Positions 32,291 through 62,255 of a stretch of DNA of 64,000 nucleotides are shown here, one piece after another. Origin of the DNA: Clostridia bacterium (GTDB lineage Bacteria; Bacillota; Clostridia; Oscillospirales; CAG-272); the NCBI GenBank assembly GCA_017631855.1, contig JAGBSP010000033.1, forward strand, positions 13,461-77,460. The letters are read 5' to 3'. Position 1 is the stretch's first letter, and each line of letters starts with the position of its first letter. A program made the position numbers and the translations under genes. The notes under the pieces are model-generated. The model had not been told where the DNA came from. It saw nothing but the letters and a program-made list of their open reading frames with translations, and ran no database searches.

Positions 32291-33322
32291 TTATTTTACC
32301 TTGATCTCACGGATCCATCCTTCGGGCGCTTCAATTCTACCCATCTGGATACCGGTTAAAGTGTCGTACAGCTTCTTGGTAACGGGACCCATTTCGGTCA
32401 TTCCGCTCGGGAAGCAGATCTCCGTGCCGTGGTCAACCACTTTTCCTACGGGAGAAATAACTGCCGCGGTACCGCAAAGGCCGCATTCTGCGAAATCCTT
32501 GATCTCTTCGAGAAGCACTTCTCTCTCTTCCACTTCCATACCGAGATATTCCTTTGCTACGTAGCAGAGCGAACGTCTGGTGATCGAGGGGAGAATGGTT
32601 TCGGACTTCGGCGTTACGAGCTTTCCGTCCTTAGTGACAAAGAGGAAGTTTGCGCCACCGGTCTCTTCTACCTTGGTTCTGGTTGCGGAATCAAGATACA
32701 TATTTTCATCGTATCCCTGATGGTGCGCATCTACGATTGCGTGCAAGCTCATTGCATAGTTAAGTCCTGCCTTGATATGACCCGTTCCGCGGGGAGCGGC
32801 ACGGTCAAAATCACAAACGCGAAGCGTCAGAGGCTTTGCACCGCCCTTGAAGTAAGGACCTACAGGCGTAGCAAAAATACGGAACTGATATTCGGTTGCG
32901 GGCTTTACACCGATGACGGGGTTGCTTCCGAACATATAAGGACGGAGGTACATCGTAGCACCCGAGCCGTAGGGGGGAACGAAATCTGCGTTTGCCGCAA
33001 CAACTGCCTCAACTGCTTCGATAAACTTATCTTCGGGGTAGGCGGGCATTTCAAGTCTTCTTGCGCTATCAGCCAAACGCTGTGCGTTGAGGTCGGGACG
33101 GAAGGTAACGATGCGTCCGTCTTCCGTGCGGTATGCCTTCAGACCCTCAAAAACGGTCTGCGCATACTGAAATACGCCTGCGCACTCATTCAAGGTAACG
33201 TTGGCATCCTCAGTCAGAAATCCCTCTTCCCAAGCGCCATCCTTAAAGTTTGCAACGTATCTCTTATCGGTCTGAATATAGCCAAAGCCCAAATTCGACC
33301 AATCCAACTGCTTGTTACTCAT
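32291..33322 (-). CDS. ilvE: branched-chain amino acid aminotransferase
   Basis: Class IV aminotransferase of the long BCAT type: VFEGLKAY, YLRPYMFG, GHIKAGLNYA, EETGGANFLFV. The start is moved to the ATG at 33320-33322 behind AGGAG. Confidence 0.9.
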   Translation of the reverse strand: MSNKQLDWSNLGFGYIQTDKRYVANFKDGAWEEGFLTEDANVTLNECAGVFQYAQTVFEGLKAYRTEDGRIVTFRPDLNAQRLADSARRLEMPAYPEDKFIEAVEAVVAANADFVPPYGSGATMYLRPYMFGSNPVIGVKPATEYQFRIFATPVGPYFKGGAKPLTLRVCDFDRAAPRGTGHIKAGLNYAMSLHAIVDAHHQGYDENMYLDSATRTKVEETGGANFLFVTKDGKLVTPKSETILPSITRRSLCYVAKEYLGMEVEEREVLLEEIKDFAECGLCGTAAVISPVGKVVDHGTEICFPSGMTEMGPVTKKLYDTLTGIQMGRIEAPEGWIREIKVK

Positions 33323-33343
33323 TGTATATTCTCCTTGCAAAAA

Positions 33344-33883
33344 TTATTTCTTATAATTTTTTCCGAGGCTGAGTGCCTTCATATTCAAATCCTTGAGCGC
33401 CGCCTTCTTGGGGGGGACAAGCTTGTCTACCACCGTTTCAGCACCGTCAAAGGAAAGCTCGGGATGATTTTCGAGGAGATGTCCTACGATAATCATATTT
33501 GCAAGCGTTGCAATACCCTCTTCCTTTGCAATCTGCGTTGCGGGAATGTAAAATACCTCTACGTCGTCTCTCTCGACCTTCAGATCGATCAGAGAAGAAT
33601 CTACGTAGATCTGTCCGCCTGCAACAACCGAGTCAACGTACTTCTCAAGCGAAGGAAGGTTCATTGCGATCAGTACGTTCGGAGCCGTGATAATCGGCGA
33701 GCCAACGGGCGTGTCGGAGAGAATTACGTTACAGTTTGCGGTACCTCCGCGCATTTCGGGGCCGTAAGAAGGAAGCCAGGAAACCTGAAGCTCTTCCAAA
33801 AGTCCCTTATAAGCCAAGAACTTTCCCGAGAAAAGAATGCCCTGACCGCCAAAGCCTGCAATCAAAATTTCTGTGGTTTTCAT
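33344..33883 (-). CDS. 2-oxoacid:ferredoxin oxidoreductase, gamma subunit
   Basis: [21 protein letters not shown] ... [13 protein letters not shown] is typical of the gamma subunit. Its ATG overlaps the beta-subunit stop (ATGA at 33880-33883). Confidence 0.9.
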
Positions 33884-34638
33884 TCTGCTGCGTCCTCCTT
33901 CGCGGATCTGTCCTTGTATACGCCGATGGGATAGTAAGGAAGCATATCGCTCTCGATCCACTCCAGCGCCTGCTTAGGCGTCATACCCCAGTTGGTCGGG
34001 CAAGCCGAAACAACCTCAACCAGCGAGAAGCCCTTGCCCTCGATCTGATTTTGGAACGCCTTCTTAATTGCCTTCTTTGCGTTTCTTACGTTCTTTACGT
34101 TATTGACGGCAACACGCGTGATGTACTCAGGTCCCTCAAGGGTTGCAAGCATCTCGCTGACACGGATCGGCCAACCGCAGTGGTTGACGTCACGTCCGTA
34201 GGGAGAGGTCTGCGTTACCTGACCGGGAAGGCTCGTAGGAGCCATCTGTCCGCCCGTCATACCGTAAATCGCGTTATTGACGAAAATGACGGTAATATTC
34301 TCGTTTCTTGCAGCAGCATGAACCGTTTCTGCCATACCGATCGACGCAAGGTCTCCATCACCCTGATAGGTGAAAACGATATTGTCGGGACGGCAACGCT
34401 TGATACCCGTTGCAACAGCGGGAGCTCTTCCGTGTGCCGCTTCAATCATATCGCAAGCGAAATAATCATATGCCATAACTGCGCATCCAACAGGAGCTAC
34501 GCCGATGGCCTTTCCTTCGATGCCAAGCTCATCCATCGTCTCGGCAACCAAACGGTGAATAATACCGTGAGGGCATCCGGGACAGTAATGAAAGGGTGCA
34601 TCGGTCAATGCTTTCGGTTTTTCAAATACGATCGCCAT
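33880..34638 (-). CDS. 2-oxoacid:ferredoxin oxidoreductase, beta (TPP-binding) subunit
   Basis: [21 protein letters not shown] (TPP G-D-G motif) and [11 protein letters not shown]. Confidence 0.9.
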
Positions 34639-34640
34639 AA

Positions 34641-35702
34641 TTAGAACTCTCCTTTCTCTGCCTTCTGAATTGCAGAAAGTACCTCATCAGGGGTAGGAAT
34701 CATACCGCCTGCACGATTACACAGCGTCACAGGCTTTTTGCTTTCGGTTGCAAGCTTTACGTCCTCGATCATCTGACCCATGCTAAGCTCAACAGAGATA
34801 AATGCTTTTACCTTATCTGCAGCAGCTCTGAGTACCTCGGTCGGGAACGGCCACAGGGTGATCGGACGAATCAAACCAACCTTAATGCCTGCTTTTCTTG
34901 CTTCCGCAACTGCGTTTTTCGCAATTCTCGAGGTAATACCGAAGGCAACGACGCAGATCTCTGCATCCTCCATCATGTATTCCTCCCACATTGCTTCGTT
35001 CTTCTCGATTTCAGCATACTTTTCGAAACGCTCGAAATTCTTCTTTTCAAGCTCATCGGGCTTGAGGTAGAGCGAGTTAACAACGTTGTGCTTTCTCTTG
35101 CACTCGGTACCGGTCAGCGCCCAAGGCTTTTCATATACAGTAGGTTCAGCGTCCTCAAAGGTAATCGGCTCCATCATCTGACCGATGGTTCCGTCCGCCA
35201 GAATCATCGTGGTCATCGAATACTTGTCTGCAAGATCAAAGCCCTTGATCGTAAGGCTTGCCATCTCCTGCACCGAAGCGGGAGCAAGAACGATCATACG
35301 ATAGTCACCGTGACCGCCGCCCTTGGTTGCCTGGAAGTAATCCGACTGCGAGGGCTGAATACCGCCAAGTCCGGGTCCGCCGCGCTGTACGTTAACAACG
35401 AGTGCGGGAATATCCGATCCTGCGATGTAGCTAAGACCCTCTGCCTTCAGCGAAATTCCGGGGCTCGAAGAGGACGTCATAACGCGAAGTCCTGCTGCCG
35501 ATGCGCCGTATACCATATTAATCGAAGCGATCTCACTCTCTGCCTGAAGAAATACGCCGCCGATTTTCGGCATTTTCTTTGCCATATATGCGGCAATTTC
35601 CGTTTGAGGCGTGATGGGATATCCAAAATAGTGACGGCAGCCTGCTCTGATCGCAGCCTCCGCAATCGCCTCGTTACCCTTCATTAAAATTCTTTCTGCC
35701 AT
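34641..35702 (-). CDS. 2-oxoacid:ferredoxin oxidoreductase, alpha subunit
   Basis: [30 protein letters not shown] ... [19 protein letters not shown]. The start is moved to the ATG at 35700-35702 behind GGAG. Confidence 0.9.
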
Positions 35703-35743
35703 TATTTTCTCCATTCCGTTACCGTTTGGTAACTGCAAAAATC

Positions 35744-35950
35744 TTACTTTTCAACCGTGATAATGCAATCGGGACACATTGTTGCGCAGAAGGCACAACC
35801 GATACATTTTTCCTGATCCTTCATATATGCGGGAGAATATCCCTTCGGATTCAGCTTGTCCTGTGCGATTGCCAGACACTGCTTGGGGCACGCGTCAACA
35901 CACAAGCCGCATCCCTTACACATATCCGTGTTAAACGTTACTTTTGCCAT
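35744..35950 (-). CDS. 2-oxoacid:ferredoxin oxidoreductase, delta subunit (2x[4Fe-4S] ferredoxin)
   Basis: CKGCGLCVDAC and CIGCAFCATMC. The start is taken at the ATG at 35948-35950 behind GGAGGA. Confidence 0.85.
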   Translation of the reverse strand: MAKVTFNTDMCKGCGLCVDACPKQCLAIAQDKLNPKGYSPAYMKDQEKCIGCAFCATMCPDCIITVEK

Positions 35951-35992
35951 TTTTGTTCCTCCTATTTCCATGACTTTCCTTTGACGTTTCTG

Positions 35993-36685
35993 TCATTGGG
36001 GTAAATCAAAGTATTTCTTTTGAAGCGTCAAGGGTAAGATCGGAAGCTCCGAAAGTTCCCCTGATATGCTTTGTTCGACGGTATGAAGCCAGATCGGAAG
36101 TCCCGTTGCAAGGCTGACTGCCTCGGCATACGCAACCGAATCAAGCACGGTCTCGCGCGTTGTTTCAAAACCGATATTCGAATTGTTCACGATACACGTA
36201 AACTGAATTCCGCACGCCGTCTCGATTTCCTTCATAATTTCCAGCGTATCCTCTACGGTAGAGGTCAGCGGTCTGTGCCGATTGATGACGAACGCCATAC
36301 GGTAATCGCCCTCTGCCTTGATCGCATCCGCAAAACGACCAAGCGCATACGCGCCTCTGTCGTCTCCGCCAATATCGACTACGCCGAAGATCGAACGATC
36401 CTGAACGAGTCGGTAGCTCTCAGCGGGAATGGCGGGAAGATCGACGTTCGTATTTGCATAACGCGAAGAGATCAAATCGATTCCGTGCGCGGAAAGCTCT
36501 TTTTCGCTATCCTTGGTTCTGAAATACGGATTGACGATATCCAGATCGGCAATACAGACCTTCTTACCTTCCTCTGCAAGACGAACTGCGTAGTTCACGG
36601 CAATGTTGGTTTTGCCGCTACCGTAATGTCCTGCAAAGAGTGTTAATCTTTTATGTTCCATAGCGATTGTTTCAGCTTTTTTCAT
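35993..36685 (-). CDS. MinD/ParA-class (SIMIBI) P-loop NTPase of unknown role
   Basis: N-terminal Walker A is GHYGSGKTN and the switch-like segment is VVDIGGDDRG. The ATG at 36683-36685 overlaps the upstream TGA (TGATG). The ATG at 36661 (MEHKRL) is an alternative start. Confidence 0.8.
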   Translation of the reverse strand: MKKAETIAMEHKRLTLFAGHYGSGKTNIAVNYAVRLAEEGKKVCIADLDIVNPYFRTKDSEKELSAHGIDLISSRYANTNVDLPAIPAESYRLVQDRSIFGVVDIGGDDRGAYALGRFADAIKAEGDYRMAFVINRHRPLTSTVEDTLEIMKEIETACGIQFTCIVNNSNIGFETTRETVLDSVAYAEAVSLATGLPIWLHTVEQSISGELSELPILPLTLQKKYFDLPQ

Positions 36686-38958
36686 CAAAGCTTCTTTCTG
36701 ATGATCTTTCCACTCGTCGTCTTAGGCAGACTCTCGTGGAATTCTACGATTCTCGGGTACTTATAGGGTGCCGTACGAGACTTGACGTAGTTCTGAATTT
36801 CCTTCTTCAACTCGTCCGTACCCTCGGTACCCTGAACAAGCACGATGCTTGCCTTAACCACCTGGCCGCGAATCTCATCGGGTGCTGCGGAAACGCCGCA
36901 CTCGAGAACGTAAGGAAGCTCCATAATAACGTTTTCGATCTCAAACGGACCGATTCTGTAGCCCGACGACTTAATGACGTCGTCCGCACGTCCTACGTAC
37001 CAGAGGAAGCCGTCCTCATCGCACCAAGCAAGGTCGCCCGTGTGATAATAACCGTCGCGCCAAGTTTCTGCCGTGACCTCGGGATTACCCTCATACGCAT
37101 ACGCAAGACCGCAAGGAAGTCCCTTCGAGATATCGATACAGATCTCACCGCTCTCACCTGCCTCAACCTTTTCGCCCTCGGGGCTCAGCAAGCAGACCTT
37201 ATACAGCGGTACAGGCTTACCCATCGAACCGATCTTGTGGCTTCCGCCTGCAAGGTTACCGATGATCAGCGTACTCTCGGACTGACCGAAGCCTTCCATA
37301 ATCTGAAGTCCCGTATGCTTTTCAAACTGACGGAATACCTCGGGATTGAGTGCCTCGCCTGCCGTCGATGCGTGCTCGATGCTGGAAAGATCGAAGCGAG
37401 AAAGATCCTGCTTAATGAGCATTCTGTACATCGTAGGCGGTGCGCAGAAGGTAGTGATATTGTACTTTTTAAAGAGCGGAAGAATCTGCTCTGCGTCAAA
37501 GCGATCGAAGTCGTAAACAAAGGTTGCCGCCTCACACAGCCACTGACCGTAGAGCTTACCCCACATTGCCTTTGCCCAACCCGTGTCGGAGATGGTCAGA
37601 TGCAATCCGTCGGGGTTGACCTGATGCCAATACTTCGCGGTAATAAAGTGCCCGAGCGGATACTTGTGATTATGCGCCGCAATCTTCGGATAACCCGAGG
37701 TACCCGAGGTGAAGAACATCAGCATGGGATCATTGCCGCAAGGAGCATCCTCGGTGCGCTCGTAGTGACTGCTGTAGAGGCTGTATTCCTCATCAAAGTT
37801 ACGCCAACCGTCGCGATTTCCGCCAACGAGAATCTTGTGCGTAAGATTCGGGGATTTTTCTGCCGCCGCGTCGACCGCATTTGCCACGTCACCGTCTGCG
37901 GTACAAACGATCGCCTTAATGCCGCCTGCGTTGAATCTGTATTCAAAATCCTTTTCAAGCAACTGATTCGGTGCGGGAATTGCCACGGCACCGAGTTTAT
38001 TCAAAGCTAACATCGAGAACCAGAACTGATAGTGGCGCTTCAGTACCAGCATCACGCGGTCGCCTCTTTGAATACCGATCGATTTAAAGTAGTTAGCAAC
38101 TCTTGCGGATTCCTTTTTCATATCCTGGAAAGTAAATTTCCGTTCTGTTCCGTCACCGCTAATATGAAGCATCGCCAGCTTATTCGGCTTACGTCTGCCG
38201 AGCTCGTCCACTACGTCAAACGCAAAGTTGAAACGATCCTCGTTTTGGAACGCAATTTCCGTCAGAATACCGTCTTTTTCAGTAGGAAGAATAAAGTCCT
38301 GATAAATTCTCTGCTGATTGTCCTCGTCGCGACGCTTGGTGACCGTCGAGGAAGCAGCTACCTGCTCACCCTCTCTTGCCGCCTGGTTGCGAAGCACGAT
38401 CGCATAGAAGGAGCAATCCGCTCCTCCCACGGCGATCATTCCGTGAGGCATACCCGAATCGTAGTAGATACAATCTCCGGGATTGAGGGTTTCGGTATGA
38501 TCACCGATCTGAATTTTCATCTGACCGCTGATAACGATATCACATTCCTGACCCTCGTGCGTAACCATCTCGATCTTCTCGTTTTCCGCTCCATTGTGGT
38601 ACTTCATCTCCATATAAAGCGGAAGTGCGATACGGTTGCGGAATCCGGAAGCGAGGTTATATCCCACCATATGATGGGCTTCCTCAATTCTCTGTCCTTC
38701 CCCTCTTCTGGTCAGGGCGTACGAGCGAAGCTTCGGGCTTTTACCCTCAAGAATATCGCTCATATCCACGCCGAAGTTAAGCGCACAGTGATATAAGAAC
38801 GCAATACTAAGATTTTTGGTACCGTTCTCACACGCTTCGTACTCGCTCTCGTCCATTCCCGTCCGTTCCGCCATTTCGGCAATCGACAGGCCCGTAATCA
38901 GACGCAACTCGCGAACACGGTCGGCGATTTGTTTTAATTTATGCTCCATAATGTCCAT
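36685..38958 (-). CDS. HTH_XRE + cupin N-terminal module fused to AMP-forming (ACSM/Macs-like) acyl-CoA synthetase
   Basis: HTH is GLSIAEMAERTGMDESEYEACENG and the cupin is HEGQECDIVISGQMKIQIGD ... GMPHGM. The adenylate-forming core has FFTSGTSGYPK, GYYHTGDLA, GRADDVIKSSGYRIGPFEIE and the terminal PKTTSGKIIR. Confidence 0.9.
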   Translation of the reverse strand: MDIMEHKLKQIADRVRELRLITGLSIAEMAERTGMDESEYEACENGTKNLSIAFLYHCALNFGVDMSDILEGKSPKLRSYALTRRGEGQRIEEAHHMVGYNLASGFRNRIALPLYMEMKYHNGAENEKIEMVTHEGQECDIVISGQMKIQIGDHTETLNPGDCIYYDSGMPHGMIAVGGADCSFYAIVLRNQAAREGEQVAASSTVTKRRDEDNQQRIYQDFILPTEKDGILTEIAFQNEDRFNFAFDVVDELGRRKPNKLAMLHISGDGTERKFTFQDMKKESARVANYFKSIGIQRGDRVMLVLKRHYQFWFSMLALNKLGAVAIPAPNQLLEKDFEYRFNAGGIKAIVCTADGDVANAVDAAAEKSPNLTHKILVGGNRDGWRNFDEEYSLYSSHYERTEDAPCGNDPMLMFFTSGTSGYPKIAAHNHKYPLGHFITAKYWHQVNPDGLHLTISDTGWAKAMWGKLYGQWLCEAATFVYDFDRFDAEQILPLFKKYNITTFCAPPTMYRMLIKQDLSRFDLSSIEHASTAGEALNPEVFRQFEKHTGLQIMEGFGQSESTLIIGNLAGGSHKIGSMGKPVPLYKVCLLSPEGEKVEAGESGEICIDISKGLPCGLAYAYEGNPEVTAETWRDGYYHTGDLAWCDEDGFLWYVGRADDVIKSSGYRIGPFEIENVIMELPYVLECGVSAAPDEIRGQVVKASIVLVQGTEGTDELKKEIQNYVKSRTAPYKYPRIVEFHESLPKTTSGKIIRKKL

Positions 38959-38988
38959 AGGTTGTTTATACTACCTCTCTTTTACGAA

Positions 38989-41256
38989 TTAAAGCTTATT
39001 ACGAATAATCTTACCGCTGATCGTCTTGGGCAATTCCTTACGGAATTCGACAATTCTCGGGTATTTGTAAGGAGCCGTGTGAAGCTTGACGTAATTCTGA
39101 ATATCCTTTTTGAGCTCATCCGTAGCCTCAGTACCGGGGACAAGAACGATACAAGCCTTAACGACCTGACCTCTGACCTCGTCGGGGGCTGCACATACTC
39201 CGCACTCAAGAACGTACGGAAGTTCCATAATCGTAGATTCGATCTCAAACGGACCGATACGGTAGCCCGAGGACTTGATGACGTCATCCGCACGTCCGAC
39301 GTACCAATAATATCCGTCCTCATCGCGCCACGCAAGGTCGCCCGTGTGATACAAGCCATCGTGCCAAACGCTTGCCGTTGCCTCCTCGTTCAGATAGTAT
39401 CCAAGGAAGAGTCCGCAGCTTGCTTTCGGCTCGGTGTGGATCACGATCTCTCCGTTCACACCGTCCGGCACGGGATTACCGTCGGGATCCGCAAGGTCGA
39501 TACCGTATCCGGGAATGGGCTTACCCATCGCACCGGGCTTGAGCTGAGTTCCGCGAAGATTGCCGATACCAAGCGTCATCTCGGTCTGACCGAAGCCCTC
39601 TGCGATACGAAGTCCGGTGGATTTTTCAAACTGGTAGAATACCTCGGGGTTGAGTGCCTCGCCCGCGGTCGTTGCGTGTCGAATCGAGGAAAGGTCAAAG
39701 CGACTGATATCCTGCTTGATGAGCATTCTGTACATCGTAGGCGGTGCACAGAATGTAGTAATGTTATATTGCTTAAAGAGCGGAAGAATCTTCTCCGCAT
39801 CGAAACGATCGAAATCGTATACGAATACCGCGCACTCACACAGCCACTGTCCGTAGAGCTTGCCCCACAGAGCCTTACCCCAACCGGTTTCCGAGATGGT
39901 AAAATGGAGTCCGTCCTTCTCACACAGATGCCAATATTTTGCCGTAACGAAATGTCCAAGCGCATATTTATACGAATGCATTGCCATCTTCGGATAACCC
40001 GTCGTTCCAGAAGTAAAGAGCATCAGCATCGGATCGTTGCCGCAAGGAGCATCCTCCGTACGGAGATAACGGCGGCTGAAGAGCGAATATTCCGCATCAA
40101 AATTGCGCCATCCGTCTCTCGATCCTCCCACAAGAACCTTCGTCAGTGAGAGATCAGATGCCTTCTCTGCCAACTCGATCTGATGCGCGGTATCTCCATC
40201 CGCAGTACATACGACCGCGCTAACGCCTGCCGCTTTAAAACGATAAGTAAAGTCGTGCTCGAGAAGCTGATTGGTTGCAGGAATCGCGATAGCACCGATC
40301 TTATGCAGACCGAGAATTGCGAACCAGAACTGATAATGACGCTTAAGTACCAAAAGGACTCGGTCGCCTCTCTGAATACCGAGCGACTTGAAGTAGTTTG
40401 CGCTCTGCGAGGAAGCATCCTTGATATCCTTAAAGGTAAATTTGCGTGCGGTCATATCGTTTGATACGTGAACCATTGCAATTTTGTTCGGCTCTTTGCG
40501 CGCGATCTCGTCTACCGTATCAAACGCAAAGTTGTATTGATCTTCGTTGGTGTAACCGACGTCGAGGAGAACTCCGTTTTCATCCTCCTTCGTCTGGATA
40601 AATTTCTCACACAGAAGCGGCGCGTTCTCTGCCGTCTGCAGACCCGAACCAATGTACATCGGCTGGTCGGTAGCATCACTCGCCATAACAACAGAGAGGA
40701 AGACGCAATCCTGATTGTCGATTGCGATCATTCCGTGAGGTGTCGAAGACTTGAAGAAAATGCTATCCCCCTCGTGCAAAATCTCCTCATGCTCTCCGAT
40801 GCGGAAGCGCAACGATCCCTTGATTACCATATCAAATTCCTGACCTGAGTGCGTTACCGTACTGATGGGCATCTTTTGGAGCTCGTCCGAATACTGATAG
40901 GTAACCCAATAGGGTGTCGCAAGCTTTTTACGGAACTGCGATGCAATTGCCTGAATCGTGATACCGTCCTCTGCCGCAGTAGTGAGACCCTCACCCTTTC
41001 GCGTCACGGTATATCCCGAGAGCTTTGCGCTATGCCCCTCAAGAAGATCGGTAATCTCAATTCCATATGCCTTAGCACACTTATGTATAAAGGTAAAGGG
41101 CAGATCAATGCTACCAGTTTCATACGAGCAATAAAGCTCTTCGGAAACCTCAGTCAACTCTGCCATCTGCGCAGATGTATAGCCCATAATCTGACGCATC
41201 TCGCGTATACGCAACGCGACCTTTTCAAGTTGATTGACATCTGATTGATTTGTCAT
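38989..41256 (-). CDS. HTH_XRE + cupin + AMP-forming acyl-CoA synthetase (tandem paralogue)
   Basis: Same architecture and motifs: LFTSGTTGYPK, GLYHTGDLA, GRADDVIKSSGYRIGPFEIE, PKTISGKIIR. The track start at 41292 is TTG inside the T-box terminator. The ATG at 41254-41256 (MTNQSD) behind AGGAG is preferred. Confidence 0.9.
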   Translation of the reverse strand: MTNQSDVNQLEKVALRIREMRQIMGYTSAQMAELTEVSEELYCSYETGSIDLPFTFIHKCAKAYGIEITDLLEGHSAKLSGYTVTRKGEGLTTAAEDGITIQAIASQFRKKLATPYWVTYQYSDELQKMPISTVTHSGQEFDMVIKGSLRFRIGEHEEILHEGDSIFFKSSTPHGMIAIDNQDCVFLSVVMASDATDQPMYIGSGLQTAENAPLLCEKFIQTKEDENGVLLDVGYTNEDQYNFAFDTVDEIARKEPNKIAMVHVSNDMTARKFTFKDIKDASSQSANYFKSLGIQRGDRVLLVLKRHYQFWFAILGLHKIGAIAIPATNQLLEHDFTYRFKAAGVSAVVCTADGDTAHQIELAEKASDLSLTKVLVGGSRDGWRNFDAEYSLFSRRYLRTEDAPCGNDPMLMLFTSGTTGYPKMAMHSYKYALGHFVTAKYWHLCEKDGLHFTISETGWGKALWGKLYGQWLCECAVFVYDFDRFDAEKILPLFKQYNITTFCAPPTMYRMLIKQDISRFDLSSIRHATTAGEALNPEVFYQFEKSTGLRIAEGFGQTEMTLGIGNLRGTQLKPGAMGKPIPGYGIDLADPDGNPVPDGVNGEIVIHTEPKASCGLFLGYYLNEEATASVWHDGLYHTGDLAWRDEDGYYWYVGRADDVIKSSGYRIGPFEIESTIMELPYVLECGVCAAPDEVRGQVVKACIVLVPGTEATDELKKDIQNYVKLHTAPYKYPRIVEFRKELPKTISGKIIRNKL

Positions 41257-41292
41257 AATTACTAAAACTCCTTTCAGGAAATCATAAAACAA

Positions 41293-41548
41293 AAAAACGT
41301 CTCAAGAAGAAAATCTTGAGACGAGCATAAACTACTCGCGGTACCACTCAAATTACGGAAAACCGCCACTTAGAACCCTTATAAGTTCTTACCCTTAACG
41401 CGGGAAACGTGAAACCCTAACCATTGCTCGGATTCCCGACTCGGAAGTGATGGGTAGCTCGACTTTTTGCAATCGGCTCGCACCAAACGCCGACTCTCTG
41501 AATGCTCATTATGCCCTACCGTCTTCGTCACAGTTTTTTCTTTATATC
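41293..41548 (-). promoter_or_regulatory. T-box riboswitch leader (inferred specifier AUC, Ile)
   Basis: Minus-strand elements: AGAGAG (41494-41499), GGTGCGAG, the conserved T-box TGAGTGGTACCGCGAG (core 41337-41350), and terminator CGTCTCAAGA/TCTTGAGACG (41298-41323) plus T7. The specifier AUC-A at 41449-41451 is inferred from alignment with the sister leader. Confidence 0.85.
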
Positions 41549-41555
41549 ATACTAT

Positions 41556-41584
41556 ATTTTATCATTTCTTCGCAAAAAAGTCAA
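41556..41584 (-). promoter_or_regulatory. SigA-type promoter of the minus-strand T-box operon
   Basis: On the minus strand: TTGACT (41579-41584), a 17-nt spacer, then TAAAAT (41556-41561). Confidence 0.55.
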
Positions 41585-41678
41585 ACATTTTCTTTCACAA
41601 AAATGCACAAACTTTCAAAATTATTAAATTGTTTTTTGTATATTATCATCAAATATCACATTTTTTTGTATTTTGCAC

Positions 41679-41707
41679 TTGACAAAACGAAAATTTAATG
41701 GTTAAAT
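41679..41707 (+). promoter_or_regulatory. SigA-type promoter of the plus-strand T-box operon
   Basis: TTGACA (41679-41684), a 17-nt spacer, then TTAAAT (41702-41707). Confidence 0.5.
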
Positions 41708-41714
41708 ATATATA

Positions 41715-41990
41715 AAAATAAGAAAGACACTGACGTAAATTTTACCCCGTATTCGAATGCAACACAGAGGCGGCGTTTGGTGCGAGCCGATGCAAACGTT
41801 TTGGGTGTACTCATTCCCGAGTCGGTCTTGTCAACGCGAAAGCAAGTAATGAGACACGGTAGCCCCCGTTACAGGGCAAGGCCTTTCTTTGGGCTTTTGA
41901 GTGATTTCCCTTCTTGGGGGGTAATCAGGGTGGTACCACGAATATGATTCGTCCCTGAAGCCGTACGAGCGGCTCGGGGATTTTTTTATT
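41715..41990 (+). promoter_or_regulatory. T-box riboswitch leader (inferred specifier CUC, Leu)
   Basis: CAGAGG ... TTTGGTGCGAGCC in Stem I, a T-box core GGGTGGTACCACG (41928-41940), and a terminator at 41952-41980 plus T7 (41981-41987). The CUC-A at 41810-41812 aligns with the AUC-A of the divergent leader. AAAGGAG and the ATG at 42010 follow. Confidence 0.85.
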
Positions 41991-42009: not shown

Positions 42010-43419
42010 ATGATGAGACAAATTGTAATCAGCGACGCAACGATGAAACAGACCTCTGAAGATCTGCGCCTTACGTTTAAGGAAAAAATTGAGCTTTGCA
42101 AGCTTTTGGACAAAATCGGTGTCGATTTGATCGAGCTTGACGGGATCAAATCGCCTCGAATTGATTCGCTTTTAATCAAATCAATCGTAGCCGCTGTTCA
42201 TCACAGCCGCGTCGCCGTTCCCGTAGAGCTCTTGAATGACGAAAATATCGAACGAACCTGGGCAGCTCTGAAAAACGCAAAAAAACCTCGTCTTCAGGTT
42301 TGTGCTCCCACAAGCGCCGTGTAAATAGAATATCTGTTCCACCAAAAGCCGGAGGCAATGATCGAATCGATCCGTCAAACAGTCGCGGCCTGCCGTGAGC
42401 TGTGCGATGACGTAGAGTTCGTTGCGGGCGACGCCACACGTAGCGAGAGCGACTTTCTCGGAAAGGCTGTAGAGGCTGCCGTTTCCGCAGGCGCAACCAC
42501 CGTAACGCTTTGCGATACGGCAGGAACGATGCTCCCCTCCGAGTTTGCTGAATTTATCCGCCGTCAGTATAGCGCGATCCCCTGTCTTTCCGAGGTCACT
42601 CTCGGTGTCTGCTGCGCCAACACCATCGCAATGGCGGACGCTTGCGCTATGATGGCAATTGCGGAGGGTGCAGGACAAATTCGTGCGGCAGCTTACACAA
42701 TCTCTGAGGCATCTCTTTCCACCGTTACTCGAATTCTTACGGCAAAGGCAGACTCGCTGAATGCGTGCATTGGCGTGAAAGCAACGCAGCTGAGCAGAAT
42801 CATCTCGCAAATCGACTGGCTCTGCCACACCGGAAAGAGTCAACCCGCTACCACCGAATCCGAGCAAGACGATGACGTGTTCCTCACGGCACACGACACG
42901 GAGGAAGCGGTTTCAGCAGCCACGGTAAGACTCGGATACGATCTCTCCGACGAGGATGCACAGAAGGTATATGCGGCATTCCGTCAGATCGCAGACAAGA
43001 AAGAAAAGGTCACCTTCAAGGAGCTTGATGCCATCGTGGCATCCTCTGCGATGCAGGTACCCTCTACTTACAAGCTCGATACCTACGTGATCACCTCCGG
43101 AAACACGATCTCGGCTACCGCTCATATTAAACTCGTCAAAAACGGAACTCCCGTGGAGGGTGTTTACATTGGTGACGGCTCAATCGACGCGGCTTTCCAG
43201 GCGATCGAGAAAATCACCGGTTGTCACTACGAGCTCGACGACTTCCAGCTTCAGGCAGTCACCGAGGGACGTGAGGCAATGGGACAAACCGTCGTCAAGC
43301 TTCGCGCGGGCAACAAGGTTTATTCGGGCAGAGGTATCTCTACCGACATCGTTGGCGCAGGAATTCAAGCCTATCTGAGCGCCTTAAATAAAATTGTTTA
43401 CGAGGAGGAAATCGAATGA
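42010..43419 (+). pseudogene. LeuA/HMGL-like protein with degenerate catalytic motifs, interrupted by one in-frame TAA (42322-42324)
   Basis: ORFs 42010-42324 and 42358-43419 are in the same frame. Homology continues across the stop: ...CAPTSAV*IEYLFHQKPEAM, compare LeuA ...TSPIHxEYKL. DTTLRDGEQ is replaced by SDATMKQTSE and H-x-H by CCANT. The C-terminal LeuA-dimer/regulatory domain looks intact (GSIDAAFQAIEKI ... TDIVGAGIQAYLSALNKI). Confidence 0.7.
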
Positions 43420-45926
43420 AACTTTCCTTTTCCACAAGAGGATGGCCAAATCTTTCTTTTGAGGAAATGCTTGAGGTCGCCCTGGATATGGGATTTTCTG
43501 GCGTTGAGGTATACAATCTCGCAAAATTTGATCCGTTGATGGAAAAAGGCGGTCCCTTCCATAAGTACAACACCGCCGCCACAGTTCGTCAGCTCAGAGA
43601 GAGAGGACTCTCGATTCCTTGCTTTGACACCTCTCTTGATATCTCGTGCGATAACACCGCGATATCGACGATAAAAAATCTGCTTGAGATCGCGCACAAT
43701 GCAAGAGTTCCCTACGTCGTGGTATGCGCATTACGCGACGACGAGGAGGCGGTATATTCCGCACTCACCGAGCTTTTGCCAATTGCCGCCGAGAAAAAAG
43801 TAAGTATCCTGATCAAAACCAGCGGAATTTACGCAGACACCCTCCGCCTTCGCGCGATGCTCGACAGCTTTGCCAGCGACCATCTCGCAGCACTGTGGGA
43901 TGTTCATCATCCGTATAGAGATCACGGAGAATCTGGAGATCAAACCATCAAAAATCTCGGTGCTTACGTTGCGCACGTCCATATGCGCGACTCGGATGAT
44001 GACGGCGCATATCAGCTGATCGGTGAAGGAACGATGCCCATCGAAGACGTAATGCGCGCACTTTCTTCGGTCAACTACGACGCGTTTATCTCCCTCGAAT
44101 GGAAGCCAGAATGGCTCGATGATCTTCAAGATCCCGAAATTATTTTCCCCCATTTTGTCAACTATATGTCGCATTTTCATTCCACGAGGGATATGAAAAA
44201 GAGTCTTTACTTCAACCACGACGGCACGGGACAGTACGTTTGGAAAAAGGACGAGCTCATCGACCTGACCTTCTCCGAGGTACTCGACAGAGTAGCAGAC
44301 GAGTTTCCCGATCAGTACTGTTTCAAGTACACGACGCTCGATTATACCCGCACCTACTCGCAGTTCCGCGAGGACGTAGACCGTTTTGCCAGAGCGCTTG
44401 TTTCTCTCGGTGTCAAGGCGGGCTCTAAGGTTGCTGTCTGGGCAACCAATCTTCCCGCGTGGTATATCACCTTCTGGGCAACCACCAAGATCGGTGCCGT
44501 TCTCGTTACCGTCAACACGGCATATAAGATCCACGAGGCGGAATATCTGCTCCGTCAATCCGACACGCATACGCTCGTGATGATCGAGAGCTGTCTTGAC
44601 TCGAATTACAAGGAAATCATCAACACCCTTTGCCCCGAACTGAAGAACACCGTCCCCGGAGAGCCTCTCCACGCAAAAAAGCTTCCCTTCCTTCGCAACG
44701 TCATCACCGTTGGATTTAAACAGGAAGGATCGCTCACCTTCGAGGAAGCAATGACACGTTATAAACTCGTCAGCCGCGAGCAGGTTGCCAGAATGGCGGC
44801 AGCCGTCAAGCCGAGCGACGTTTGCAATATGCAGTACACCTCGGGTACGACAGGCTTTCCAAAGGGCGTAATGCTCACGCACTACAACGTTGTCAACAAC
44901 GGAAAATGTATTGGTGACCGTATGGGACTTTCCACAGCGGACCGAATGATGATCCATGTTCCAATGTTCCACTGCTTCGGTATGACACTCTCGATGACCT
45001 CGTCGATGACGCACGGTGCTACAATGTGTCCAATGCCCTATTTCTCCGCAAAATCCTCTCTGGCGTGTATCAATCAAGAGAAGATTACCTGCTTTAACGG
45101 CGTACCGACGATGTTTATCGCAATGTTCAATCACCCGAACTACCGCAATACTGACTTCTCGCATATGAGAACGGGAATTATGGCAGGATCAGGCTGTCCC
45201 CCCGAATTGATGAAGCGCGCCGCACGTCCCGACGAGATGAATATGACGGGAATCGTCAGCGTTTACGGACAAACCGAATGCGCGCCCGGTAATACGATGA
45301 GCTCGTGGACCGATCCGCTGGACGTCCGAACCGAAACGGTAGGATCCGCATTCCCACACGTCATGTGTAAAATTATTGATCCTGAAACAGGAACCGAAGT
45401 TGGTCCCGGTGTCAACGGCGAATTCTGTGCCAAGGGATATAACACAATGAAGGGCTACTATAAAATGCCAGATGCCACCAAGGAAACGATTGATGAGGAC
45501 GGATGGCTCCACTCGGGCGACCTCGCTTGCCGTGATGAGAACGGAAATTATAAAATTACCGGACGTCTTAAGGATATGATCATCCGCGGCGGTGAAAATA
45601 TTTACCCCAAGGAAATCGAGGAATTTATTTATACCCACCCGATGACAAAAGACGTTCAGGTCATCGGCGTTCCCGATAAAAAATACGGCGAGGAGATTAT
45701 GGCTTGCATTATCCTCAAGGAACCGGGAAGCGTCACGGTGGAGGAGATGAGTGCCTATATTAAATCCAGCATGGCGCGCCATAAAGTTCCGAAGTATATC
45801 GAATTTGTGGACAGCTTCCCGATGAACGCGGCAGGCAAAGTGCTCAAATATAAGATGCGACAGGACGCCGCAGAGCGCCTCGGACTTGTTGGCGACGGTG
45901 CCGATACAGCAGGTCCCCAAAAATAA
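43416..45926 (+). CDS. xylose-isomerase-like TIM-barrel domain fused to AMP-forming acyl-CoA ligase (FadD-like)
   Basis: The N-terminal ~260 aa resemble sugar-phosphate isomerase/epimerase (AP_endonuc_2-like): LSFSTRGWP ... GFSGVEVY ... HVHMRD ... ISLEW. The C-terminal ligase has MQYTSGTTGFPKGV, GWLHSGDLA, GRLKDMIIRGGENIYPKEIE and NAAGKVLK. Its start overlaps the upstream stop (ATGA). Confidence 0.88.
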   Translation: MKLSFSTRGWPNLSFEEMLEVALDMGFSGVEVYNLAKFDPLMEKGGPFHKYNTAATVRQLRERGLSIPCFDTSLDISCDNTAISTIKNLLEIAHNARVPYVVVCALRDDEEAVYSALTELLPIAAEKKVSILIKTSGIYADTLRLRAMLDSFASDHLAALWDVHHPYRDHGESGDQTIKNLGAYVAHVHMRDSDDDGAYQLIGEGTMPIEDVMRALSSVNYDAFISLEWKPEWLDDLQDPEIIFPHFVNYMSHFHSTRDMKKSLYFNHDGTGQYVWKKDELIDLTFSEVLDRVADEFPDQYCFKYTTLDYTRTYSQFREDVDRFARALVSLGVKAGSKVAVWATNLPAWYITFWATTKIGAVLVTVNTAYKIHEAEYLLRQSDTHTLVMIESCLDSNYKEIINTLCPELKNTVPGEPLHAKKLPFLRNVITVGFKQEGSLTFEEAMTRYKLVSREQVARMAAAVKPSDVCNMQYTSGTTGFPKGVMLTHYNVVNNGKCIGDRMGLSTADRMMIHVPMFHCFGMTLSMTSSMTHGATMCPMPYFSAKSSLACINQEKITCFNGVPTMFIAMFNHPNYRNTDFSHMRTGIMAGSGCPPELMKRAARPDEMNMTGIVSVYGQTECAPGNTMSSWTDPLDVRTETVGSAFPHVMCKIIDPETGTEVGPGVNGEFCAKGYNTMKGYYKMPDATKETIDEDGWLHSGDLACRDENGNYKITGRLKDMIIRGGENIYPKEIEEFIYTHPMTKDVQVIGVPDKKYGEEIMACIILKEPGSVTVEEMSAYIKSSMARHKVPKYIEFVDSFPMNAAGKVLKYKMRQDAAERLGLVGDGADTAGPQK

Positions 45927-62074: not shown

Positions 62075-62255
62075 TTGTAAATAAAATGAAAAAGTCACCG
62101 ACAAAATCGGTGGCTCTGAAAATAAGAAATTGGCAGTCATACGCAAAATAGCGTCGTTTCCGCCTCTGTCCTCTTGCCTGAGAGATTCGGTCAGCTTACG
62201 CCGGCCTTGCACCTTCGGCACCCACTTAAGGGATTCTCCAGAGCTCCTCGGTAAA
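62075..62255 (-). promoter_or_regulatory. glycine riboswitch (single aptamer) with terminator
   Basis: The minus strand reads CTCTGGAGAATCCC ... GGGTGCCGAAGGTGCAAG ... ATCTCTCAGGCAAGAGGACAGAGG, matching the GGAGA / ACCGAAGGxGCAA / CUCAGGCAAxAGGAC consensus. Hairpin CACCGA/TCGGTG (62096-62112) is followed by a T-rich tract. Confidence 0.8.

Follow-up and report, generated by a model that had tools for sequence, protein, structure and literature searches.

The intergenic region between two divergent operons of a Clostridia bacterium (GenBank assembly GCA_017631855.1, contig JAGBSP010000033.1, positions 13,461 to 77,460; Oscillospirales, CAG-272) carries two T-box leaders standing back to back, and we refer to the whole 64,000-nucleotide stretch that was analysed as the window. 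Both leaders are genuine T-box riboswitches by RNA family, structure and specifier triplet, the one on the minus strand having the isoleucine (Ile) specifier AUC and the one on the plus strand the leucine (Leu) specifier CUC. We consider it highly probable that they are independent Ile and Leu attenuators serving the two arms of a branched-acid system conserved in the Oscillospirales, with no recent duplication demonstrated. An earlier reading of this DNA, made from the letters alone (the sequence-only reading), had proposed two divergent T-box leaders that arose by duplication; the leaders themselves are borne out by the covariance-model matches given below, and their supposed origin is taken up later. 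The RNA elements are ordinary T-boxes, and the genes they regulate are unusual for T-boxes. The parts of the two leaders are as follows.

41291-41540, minus strand: Ile-type T-box leader, comprising stem I, stem IIA/B with CGCGUUA, stem III, T-box antiterminator and terminator.
41449-41451, minus strand: specifier AUC (Ile), followed by A41448 and then the basal helix strand CUUC (covariance-model alignment).
41343-41346, minus strand: UGGU of the T-box bulge of the Ile leader, which would pair with the tRNA 3' end A73-C-C-A (read from the sequence and the covariance-model alignment).
Stem 41323-41298 and U-run 41297-41291, minus strand: terminator of the Ile leader (terminator scan and folding, -20.1 kcal/mol, z -4.4).
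41721-41987, plus strand: Leu-type T-box leader, comprising stem I, stem IIA/B with CCCCGUUA, stem III, T-box antiterminator and terminator.
41810-41812, plus strand: specifier CUC (Leu), followed by A41813 and then the basal helix strand UUCC (covariance-model alignment).
41931-41934, plus strand: UGGU of the T-box bulge of the Leu leader, fitting A73-CCA of the genome's tRNA-Leu(GAG) (read from the sequence and the covariance-model alignment).
Stem 41953-41979 and U-run 41981-41987, plus strand: terminator of the Leu leader (competing antiterminator and terminator folds, -23.9 kcal/mol, z -2.8).

T-boxes were detected with the Rfam covariance model (CM) RF00230, which has a curated gathering score of 93 bits, and the minus-strand leader was recovered under an E-value threshold rather than the gathering score. 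The Leu leader matches at 41721-41959 (+) with 101.9 bits, above the gathering score, and the Ile leader at 41540-41314 (-) with 92.6 bits (E 8e-21), each over model positions 1-219; orthologues of the Ile leader score 72-92 bits against the same model. In the CM alignment, stem I of both leaders has the base UGA...GAG of a kink-turn (K-turn) and, distally, CAGAG(A)G ... UUUGGUGCGAG, which makes up the AG bulge and loop, in the T-box family AGAGA ... GGUGNRA. The T-box sequences are GGGUGGUACCACG and, in the Ile leader, GAGUGGUACCGCG, which fits the T-box consensus, and in both the UGGN bulge is part of an antiterminator for which an intrinsic terminator is the competing fold. This terminator is a G+C-rich hairpin followed by a U-run, and its 5' strand shares nucleotides with the antiterminator's 3' strand.

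The leaders were followed into two sets of relatives, namely eight genomes of the genus that have the same divergent arrangement, and a wider set of 80 loci encoding relatives of the helix-turn-helix (HTH)-cupin ligase that follows the Ile leader, drawn from Oscillospiraceae, 'Faecousia', Acutalibacteraceae and related metagenome-assembled genomes (MAGs) of the ruminant and human gut. Leaders in these loci were found by nhmmer with a hidden Markov model built from 18 leaders, together with a geometric rule for the specifier, and the results were cross-checked against the Rfam alignment and RNAalifold; cases that the script did not parse were read by eye for the specifier counts. The Ile leader is present in 8/8 of the congeners and 76/80 of the related loci, the Leu leader in 8/8 and 55/80.

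The specifiers are placed by both alignment and covariation. Right alignment of the two leaders in the sequence-only reading had set AUC-A opposite CUC-A, and the CM alignment agrees, with CUC and AUC occupying one and the same model column, followed by A and a 4-bp basal helix; the structure-based alignment that had been proposed as a check of the specifier loop thus puts the same two triplets there. RNAalifold on stem I of 24 Leu-type and 25 Ile-type diverse leaders showed covariation of the basal, inner and distal helices in both sets, with compensatory changes at 9 of 16 pairs in the Leu type and 15 of 20 in the Ile type, and located the triplet one nucleotide 5' of the basal helix in both. 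Covariation in the Ile type supports the helices GAAG/CUUC and GGYN/NRCC, with only N-AUC-N left unpaired on the 3' side; since GGUA and UACC are paired, the specifier loop is very compact, at 2 nucleotides (nt) opposite 5. In the Leu-type loop the 3' side is 5-6 nt long and ends in CUN-N.

Conservation points the same way. The leader directly before the first ligase gene (ligase 1) reads AUC in 73 of 76 cases among the related loci. The divergent leader stands upstream of a LeuA-like gene in all 55 loci that have it and reads only Leu codons (CUC about 29, CUG about 22, CUU 5), while among nine genomes of the genus CUC is invariant and its flanking bases vary. The assignment is supported because the variation is limited to synonymous codons, as expected of a specifier, and the regulated genes, with IlvE and a LeuA-like gene among them, agree with the amino acids so specified. 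The identification of AUC (Ile) and CUC (Leu) was therefore upheld, and with the conservation across the 80 loci so was the suggestion that each operon answers to a different amino-acid signal. On the tRNA side, a tRNA-Leu(GAG) with A73 and an encoded CCA was found by Aragorn on contig C6 of the source genome and matches the UGGU bulge, so that the Leu half of the proposed anticodon and discriminator check stands. Both leaders are predicted to respond to the tRNAs named by their specifiers.

Each leader has its own promoter.

41556-41584, minus strand: Ile-leader promoter, with TTGACT (41584-41579), a 17-nt spacer and a TG-extended TAAAAT (10/12 matches in the promoter scan).
41679-41707, plus strand: Leu-leader promoter, with TTGACA (41679-41684), a 17-nt spacer and TGgTTAAAT (read from the sequence).

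The -35 boxes had been assigned to these same positions, 41579-41584 (-) and 41679-41684 (+), and the assignment holds; both promoters are conserved in relatives. The leader starts had been put about 130 nt apart, which we correct to about 165-180 nt. For the Ile leader the conserved promoter blocks are GTCAA and ATTTTATCA; for the Leu leader all 16 aligned loci have TTGACA, and conservation extends to the extended -10, the absence of this promoter from the promoter-scan output being due to the T at -10 position 2. An inverted repeat, TGCACAAA-N23-TTTGTATA, lies between the two -35 boxes (41604-41611 and 41635-41642). It is perfect (TGCACAAA/TTTGTGCA or TGTACAAA/TTTGTACA) in the nearest relatives only, in 4 of 55 loci by a strict pattern, and may be an operator site, possibly one recognised by the ligases' HTH-cupin domains.

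The genes behind the two leaders are listed here, each operon in the order in which it would be transcribed.

38989-41256, minus strand: ligase 1, the first gene of the Ile operon, an XRE-type HTH domain, a cupin domain and an AMP-forming acyl-CoA ligase (Pfam).
36685-38958, minus strand: ligase 2, a paralogue of ligase 1 (61% identical), starting 30 nt after it and without a leader of its own in the window (Pfam).
35993-36688, minus strand: P-loop NTPase of the Ile operon (Pfam).
35744-35971, minus strand: 2-oxoacid:ferredoxin oxidoreductase delta subunit, an open reading frame with two 4Fe-4S motifs.
34641-35738, minus strand: 2-oxoacid:ferredoxin oxidoreductase alpha subunit (Pfam).
33880-34638, minus strand: 2-oxoacid:ferredoxin oxidoreductase beta subunit (Pfam).
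33344-33961, minus strand: 2-oxoacid:ferredoxin oxidoreductase gamma subunit (Pfam).
32291-33340, minus strand: class IV aminotransferase, IlvE-like (Pfam); the part of the Ile operon after the ligases spans 32291-36688.
42010-43419, plus strand: LeuA-like gene behind the Leu leader, with HMGL-like and LeuA_dimer domains (Pfam).
43416-45926, plus strand: xylose-isomerase-like TIM barrel fused to an AMP-forming ligase, overlapping the stop codon of the LeuA-like gene (Pfam).

Of the 80 related loci, 48 have a further T-box, their third, in the interval that separates the two ligase genes, and its specifier is always a valine (Val) codon (GUA in 37, GUC in 11). Examples occur in loci L073-L137, such as L117:3857-4121, and the corresponding interval of the window, 38959-38988, is without a T-box. 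In the 80-locus comparison the Val leader is missing from the window and its closest relatives, and therefore both HTH-cupin ligases of this lineage stand behind the Ile leader. In some congeners an additional AUC T-box precedes a third HTH-type ligase gene, 'HTHlig3' (G008:C1:6205-6450, G012:C199:5706-5954 and G023:C24:75907-76157); this leader is nested in the Ile-type clade of the trees described below and was not seen in the source genome, G000.

In the mechanism that we propose, transcription would run outward from two conserved sigma-70-type promoters into two transcription-attenuating T-boxes. Uncharged tRNA-Ile(GAU) would bind the AUC leader, and its free 3' end would pair with UGGU and stabilise the antiterminator, allowing read-through into the two HTH-cupin acyl-CoA ligases, the P-loop NTPase, the four-subunit 2-oxoacid:ferredoxin oxidoreductase and IlvE. 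Uncharged tRNA-Leu(GAG) on the CUC leader would allow read-through into the LeuA-like protein and the TIM-barrel-ligase fusion. Across the Oscillospirales system the Ile, Val and Leu T-boxes would each gate a different acid-activating enzyme, on a route that would lead from a branched short-chain acid to its acyl-CoA, by reductive carboxylation to a 2-oxoacid, and from there to the amino acid. In the rumen, Leu is known to be made from isovalerate, Ile from 2-methylbutyrate and Val from isobutyrate (PMC7356843). Together with these known precursors, the three-leader pattern points to a route gated by tRNA, leading from branched acids to branched-chain amino acids, as the most likely function of both operons, the substrates of the ligases and the direction of the pathway being themselves predicted. 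With its AMP-forming ligases, VOR-type oxidoreductase and branched-chain aminotransferase, the gene set fits the reductive carboxylation described for the rumen (PMC7356843), and the hosts are Oscillospirales of the ruminant and human gut; the biochemical literature, in contrast, assigns to that pathway neither these genes nor control by tRNA sensing. Read as labels, the specifiers would assign Ile to ligase 1, Val to the ligase 2 orthologues of relatives and Leu to the arm of the LeuA-like protein and TIM-barrel ligase, and in this way T-boxes may turn a gut and rumen pathway known only biochemically into testable predictions of gene and substrate.

A Leu-class T-box precedes the ilv-leu operon of Bacillus subtilis. 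Compared with the Leu-class T-box before ilvB of congeners, the Leu leader has the same stem I with its K-turn base, distal AG bulge and loop and CUC one nucleotide before the basal helix, the same F-box or stem IIA-B, stem III, UGGU bulge and competing terminator, and the same presumed control of genes for leucine supply; it differs in governing a LeuA-like gene and a fusion of a TIM barrel to an acyl-CoA ligase instead of ilv/leu enzymes, and in having neither a recognisable S-turn nor a conserved purine after the specifier. The Ile leader shares with Ile-class T-boxes (ileS, ilvA) the AUC triplet, the UGGU bulge for A73 and the terminator/antiterminator logic, but governs acyl-CoA ligases, a 2-oxoacid:ferredoxin oxidoreductase and IlvE, and its specifier loop is very compact. 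No CoA ligase or oxidoreductase is among the T-box-regulated genes of the 2008 survey, in whose text neither 'CoA' nor 'oxidoreductase' occurs (PMC2494555), and a full-text literature search, of incomplete coverage, returned no paper on T-box control of acyl-CoA ligase/oxidoreductase loci.

The distribution of the locus was set against that of the classical pathway across 61 sampled genomes of the genus, using KARI_C (ilvC) and ILVD_EDD_N (ilvD) as markers. The divergent-leader locus occurs in 17 of the 61. Neither marker was found in 16 of these 17 holders, four of which are 95-97% complete, and the single exception is a 3.1-Mb bin with 6% contamination. Among the 44 genomes without the locus, 40 have ilvC and the remaining four are 55-82% complete. 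In the locus-free congeners ilvA follows a T-box with AUC and ilvB one with CUC, and ilvC and ilvD lie downstream, in the regions listed here.

G003:C62:7081-9354: ilvA/ilvB T-box region of a congener.
G024:C6:82328-84595: the same region.
G030:C11:152665-155016: the same region.
G033:C6:30760-33039: the same region.
G077:C3:29373-31654: the same region.

Such near-perfect complementarity with ilvC/ilvD within one genus suggests a dependence on branched fermentation acids for branched-chain amino acids. A stronger form of this proposal is that in part of the genus the tRNA-gated salvage has replaced ilvC/ilvD, with Ile, Val and Leu made solely from 2-methylbutyrate, isobutyrate and isovalerate, that the specifier labels the substrate of each ligase, and that loss of the Val switch in the window lineage has left the Val-arm ligase answering to Ile starvation; we regard its chances as evenly balanced.

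Several observations weigh against the account given so far. The Ile leader falls 0.4 bits below the gathering score of RF00230. The S-turn motif of canonical specifier loops (AGUA/GAA) is unrecognisable in either leader in the CM alignment. The conserved purine that had been expected after the specifier is an A in both window leaders, yet it is not conserved in relatives, where the base is A in 33, C in 35 and G in 5 of the Ile type and A, U, C or G in the Leu type. Both features are common rather than universal in T-boxes, and their lack is an atypical detail. For the Ile half of the anticodon and discriminator check, Aragorn found no tRNA-Ile(GAU) across the whole source genome, an 85.5%-complete MAG, and a pattern search for it in five congeners matched only tRNA-Asn. 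For the Ile pairing we accordingly rely on what is generally known of bacterial tRNA-Ile; the gene probably lies in unassembled rRNA operons. An in-frame TAA (42322-42324) breaks the LeuA-like gene, the first of the Leu operon, in this assembly. The codon is CAG or CAA (Gln) in 52 of 55 relatives, which makes the TAA either one C-to-T nonsense substitution or an error in the assembly of this MAG. The oxidoreductase and IlvE stand behind the Ile leader only, so that a rise of the later steps under Leu starvation alone is left unexplained. Finally, the complementarity of the locus with ilvC/ilvD is striking, yet the holders may form one subclade and so represent a single evolutionary event.

We turn to the claim that the two leaders are clear paralogues, separated by one base in the specifier, which comparison with other T-boxes does not show. 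The long identical stretches on which it was based are real, and consist of CCGAGTCGG and of a 21-nt stretch that is also seen as an inverted self-match.

41771-41791, plus strand, equal to 41492-41472, minus strand: identical stretch CGGCGTTTGGTGCGAGCCGAT, covering the stem I distal helix, the loop and part of the AG bulge.

CGGCGTTTGGTGCGAGCCGAT is the longest exact match that any of the 21 pairings of the seven T-boxes of the source genome gives. It lies in the most conserved part of T-boxes, the distal motifs of stem I, and identity beyond background is limited to it. In maximum-likelihood (ML) trees of 43, 125 and 135 T-box sequences, the last including the congener ilvA and ilvB leaders, the main Leu-type clade (97/92) is separate from a clade of Ile-type, Val-type and HTHlig3 leaders (95/92), and the two are not sisters, with aspS and pheS leaders falling between them. 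Forcing the Leu, Ile, Val and HTHlig3 leaders to be monophyletic costs 10.4 log-likelihood units (approximately unbiased (AU) test, p=0.265), which decides neither way. The window leaders are, on this evidence, homologous as all T-boxes are; a common origin closer than that appears neither supported nor excluded, any duplication would be old, and a recent local one with a one-base specifier change is undemonstrated.

Specifier switches after duplication are nevertheless real in this leader family, in members other than the two of the window. The Val-type leader clade (100/99) is nested within the Ile-type clade. Four Leu leaders of Acutalibacteraceae (L112, L116, L117 and L120, at about 675-1020) have CUC and stand upstream of the LeuA-like gene with an architecture of Ile/Val type; they are 66-72% identical to Ile/Val leaders, the level of an Ile-Val pair, and 58-59% identical to the main Leu type, and are apparently the product of a leader replacement followed by a specifier switch. 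Evolution of T-boxes by duplication and a later change of specificity has been described (Wels et al. 2008, PMC2494555), and here the Val-type and a few Leu leaders derive from Ile/Val-type leaders and have a changed specifier, which makes the family a source of clean natural examples (Ile to Val, and Ile/Val type to Leu).

Could the window leaders be a further case, a local inverted duplication with a single A-to-C (or reverse) change at specifier position 1? Such an event would account for an exact 21-nt stretch that is unique among the T-box pairs of the genome, for CCGAGUCGG, and for the equal length of stem I (103 nt) and the same specifier geometry in both leaders; joint monophyly is not rejected by the AU test, and the same process has occurred elsewhere in the family, as just described. 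We nonetheless think it fairly unlikely. Over their full length the two leaders are 67% identical, which is the value for the unrelated trpB/valS and pheS/cysES leader pairs of the same genome. The Leu type has the basal helix GGAA/UUCC against GAAG/CUUC in the Ile type, and different T-box flanks, throughout the 80 loci and across the 55 Leu-type loci. The trees separate the types, with other leaders in between, and the shared stretch, which falls in family-wide distal motifs, decays in other clades, where only 16-22 of the 30 nucleotides of the distal stem I segment agree between the Leu and Ile types. Any duplication would predate the split of Oscillospiraceae and Acutalibacteraceae, with a divergence far beyond one base. 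Concerted evolution offers another source of the local identity, in that gene conversion between the inverted leaders might keep the distal part of stem I alike. The helix UCGGC/GCCGA is common to both leaders in the clade of the window, the same variable loop bases recur in both leaders of several genomes (W, L011 and L014), and the identity of the 30-nt segment is 21.6 within genomes against 21.2 between them (permutation p about 0.05). This effect amounts to only 0.4 nt per 30, however, and its p-value is overstated because the genomes are related and some are near-duplicates; the helices of the Faecousia-like clade differ consistently (CCGGC against UCGGC, UUGGC and others), and Ile-Val and Leu-Val pairs give no signal (p 0.52 and 0.94). 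We regard gene conversion as very improbable.

A different origin altogether would make the Leu leader and its LeuA-like gene the relic of a classical T-box ilv-leu operon, retained as the lineage lost the classical pathway and unrelated in origin to the Ile leader. In its favour, locus-free congeners have ilvB behind a Leu (CUC) T-box and ilvA behind an Ile T-box, the LeuA-like gene retains the LeuA regulatory domain, and the holders of the locus are without ilvC and ilvD. The tree does not bring the Leu-type leaders together with the ilvB Leu leaders, though its deep nodes have 10-31% support, and the Leu leader with its LeuA-like gene also occurs in families far outside the genus, so that we judge this history quite unlikely.

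Further riboswitches were seen in the source genome. One T-box outside the window (G000:C53:5740-5990) lies upstream of a 529-amino-acid AMP-binding enzyme; the geometry of its GAAA/UUUC helix suggests the specifier UAC (Tyr), and hence that an aromatic acid ligase is tRNA-gated too. Another, at a contig end (G000:C56:10959-11182), has a GUC specifier, groups in the trees with the valS leaders of congeners and is probably a valS leader itself. Within the window, a glycine riboswitch aptamer was found at 62156-62251 (-), with 57.7 bits.

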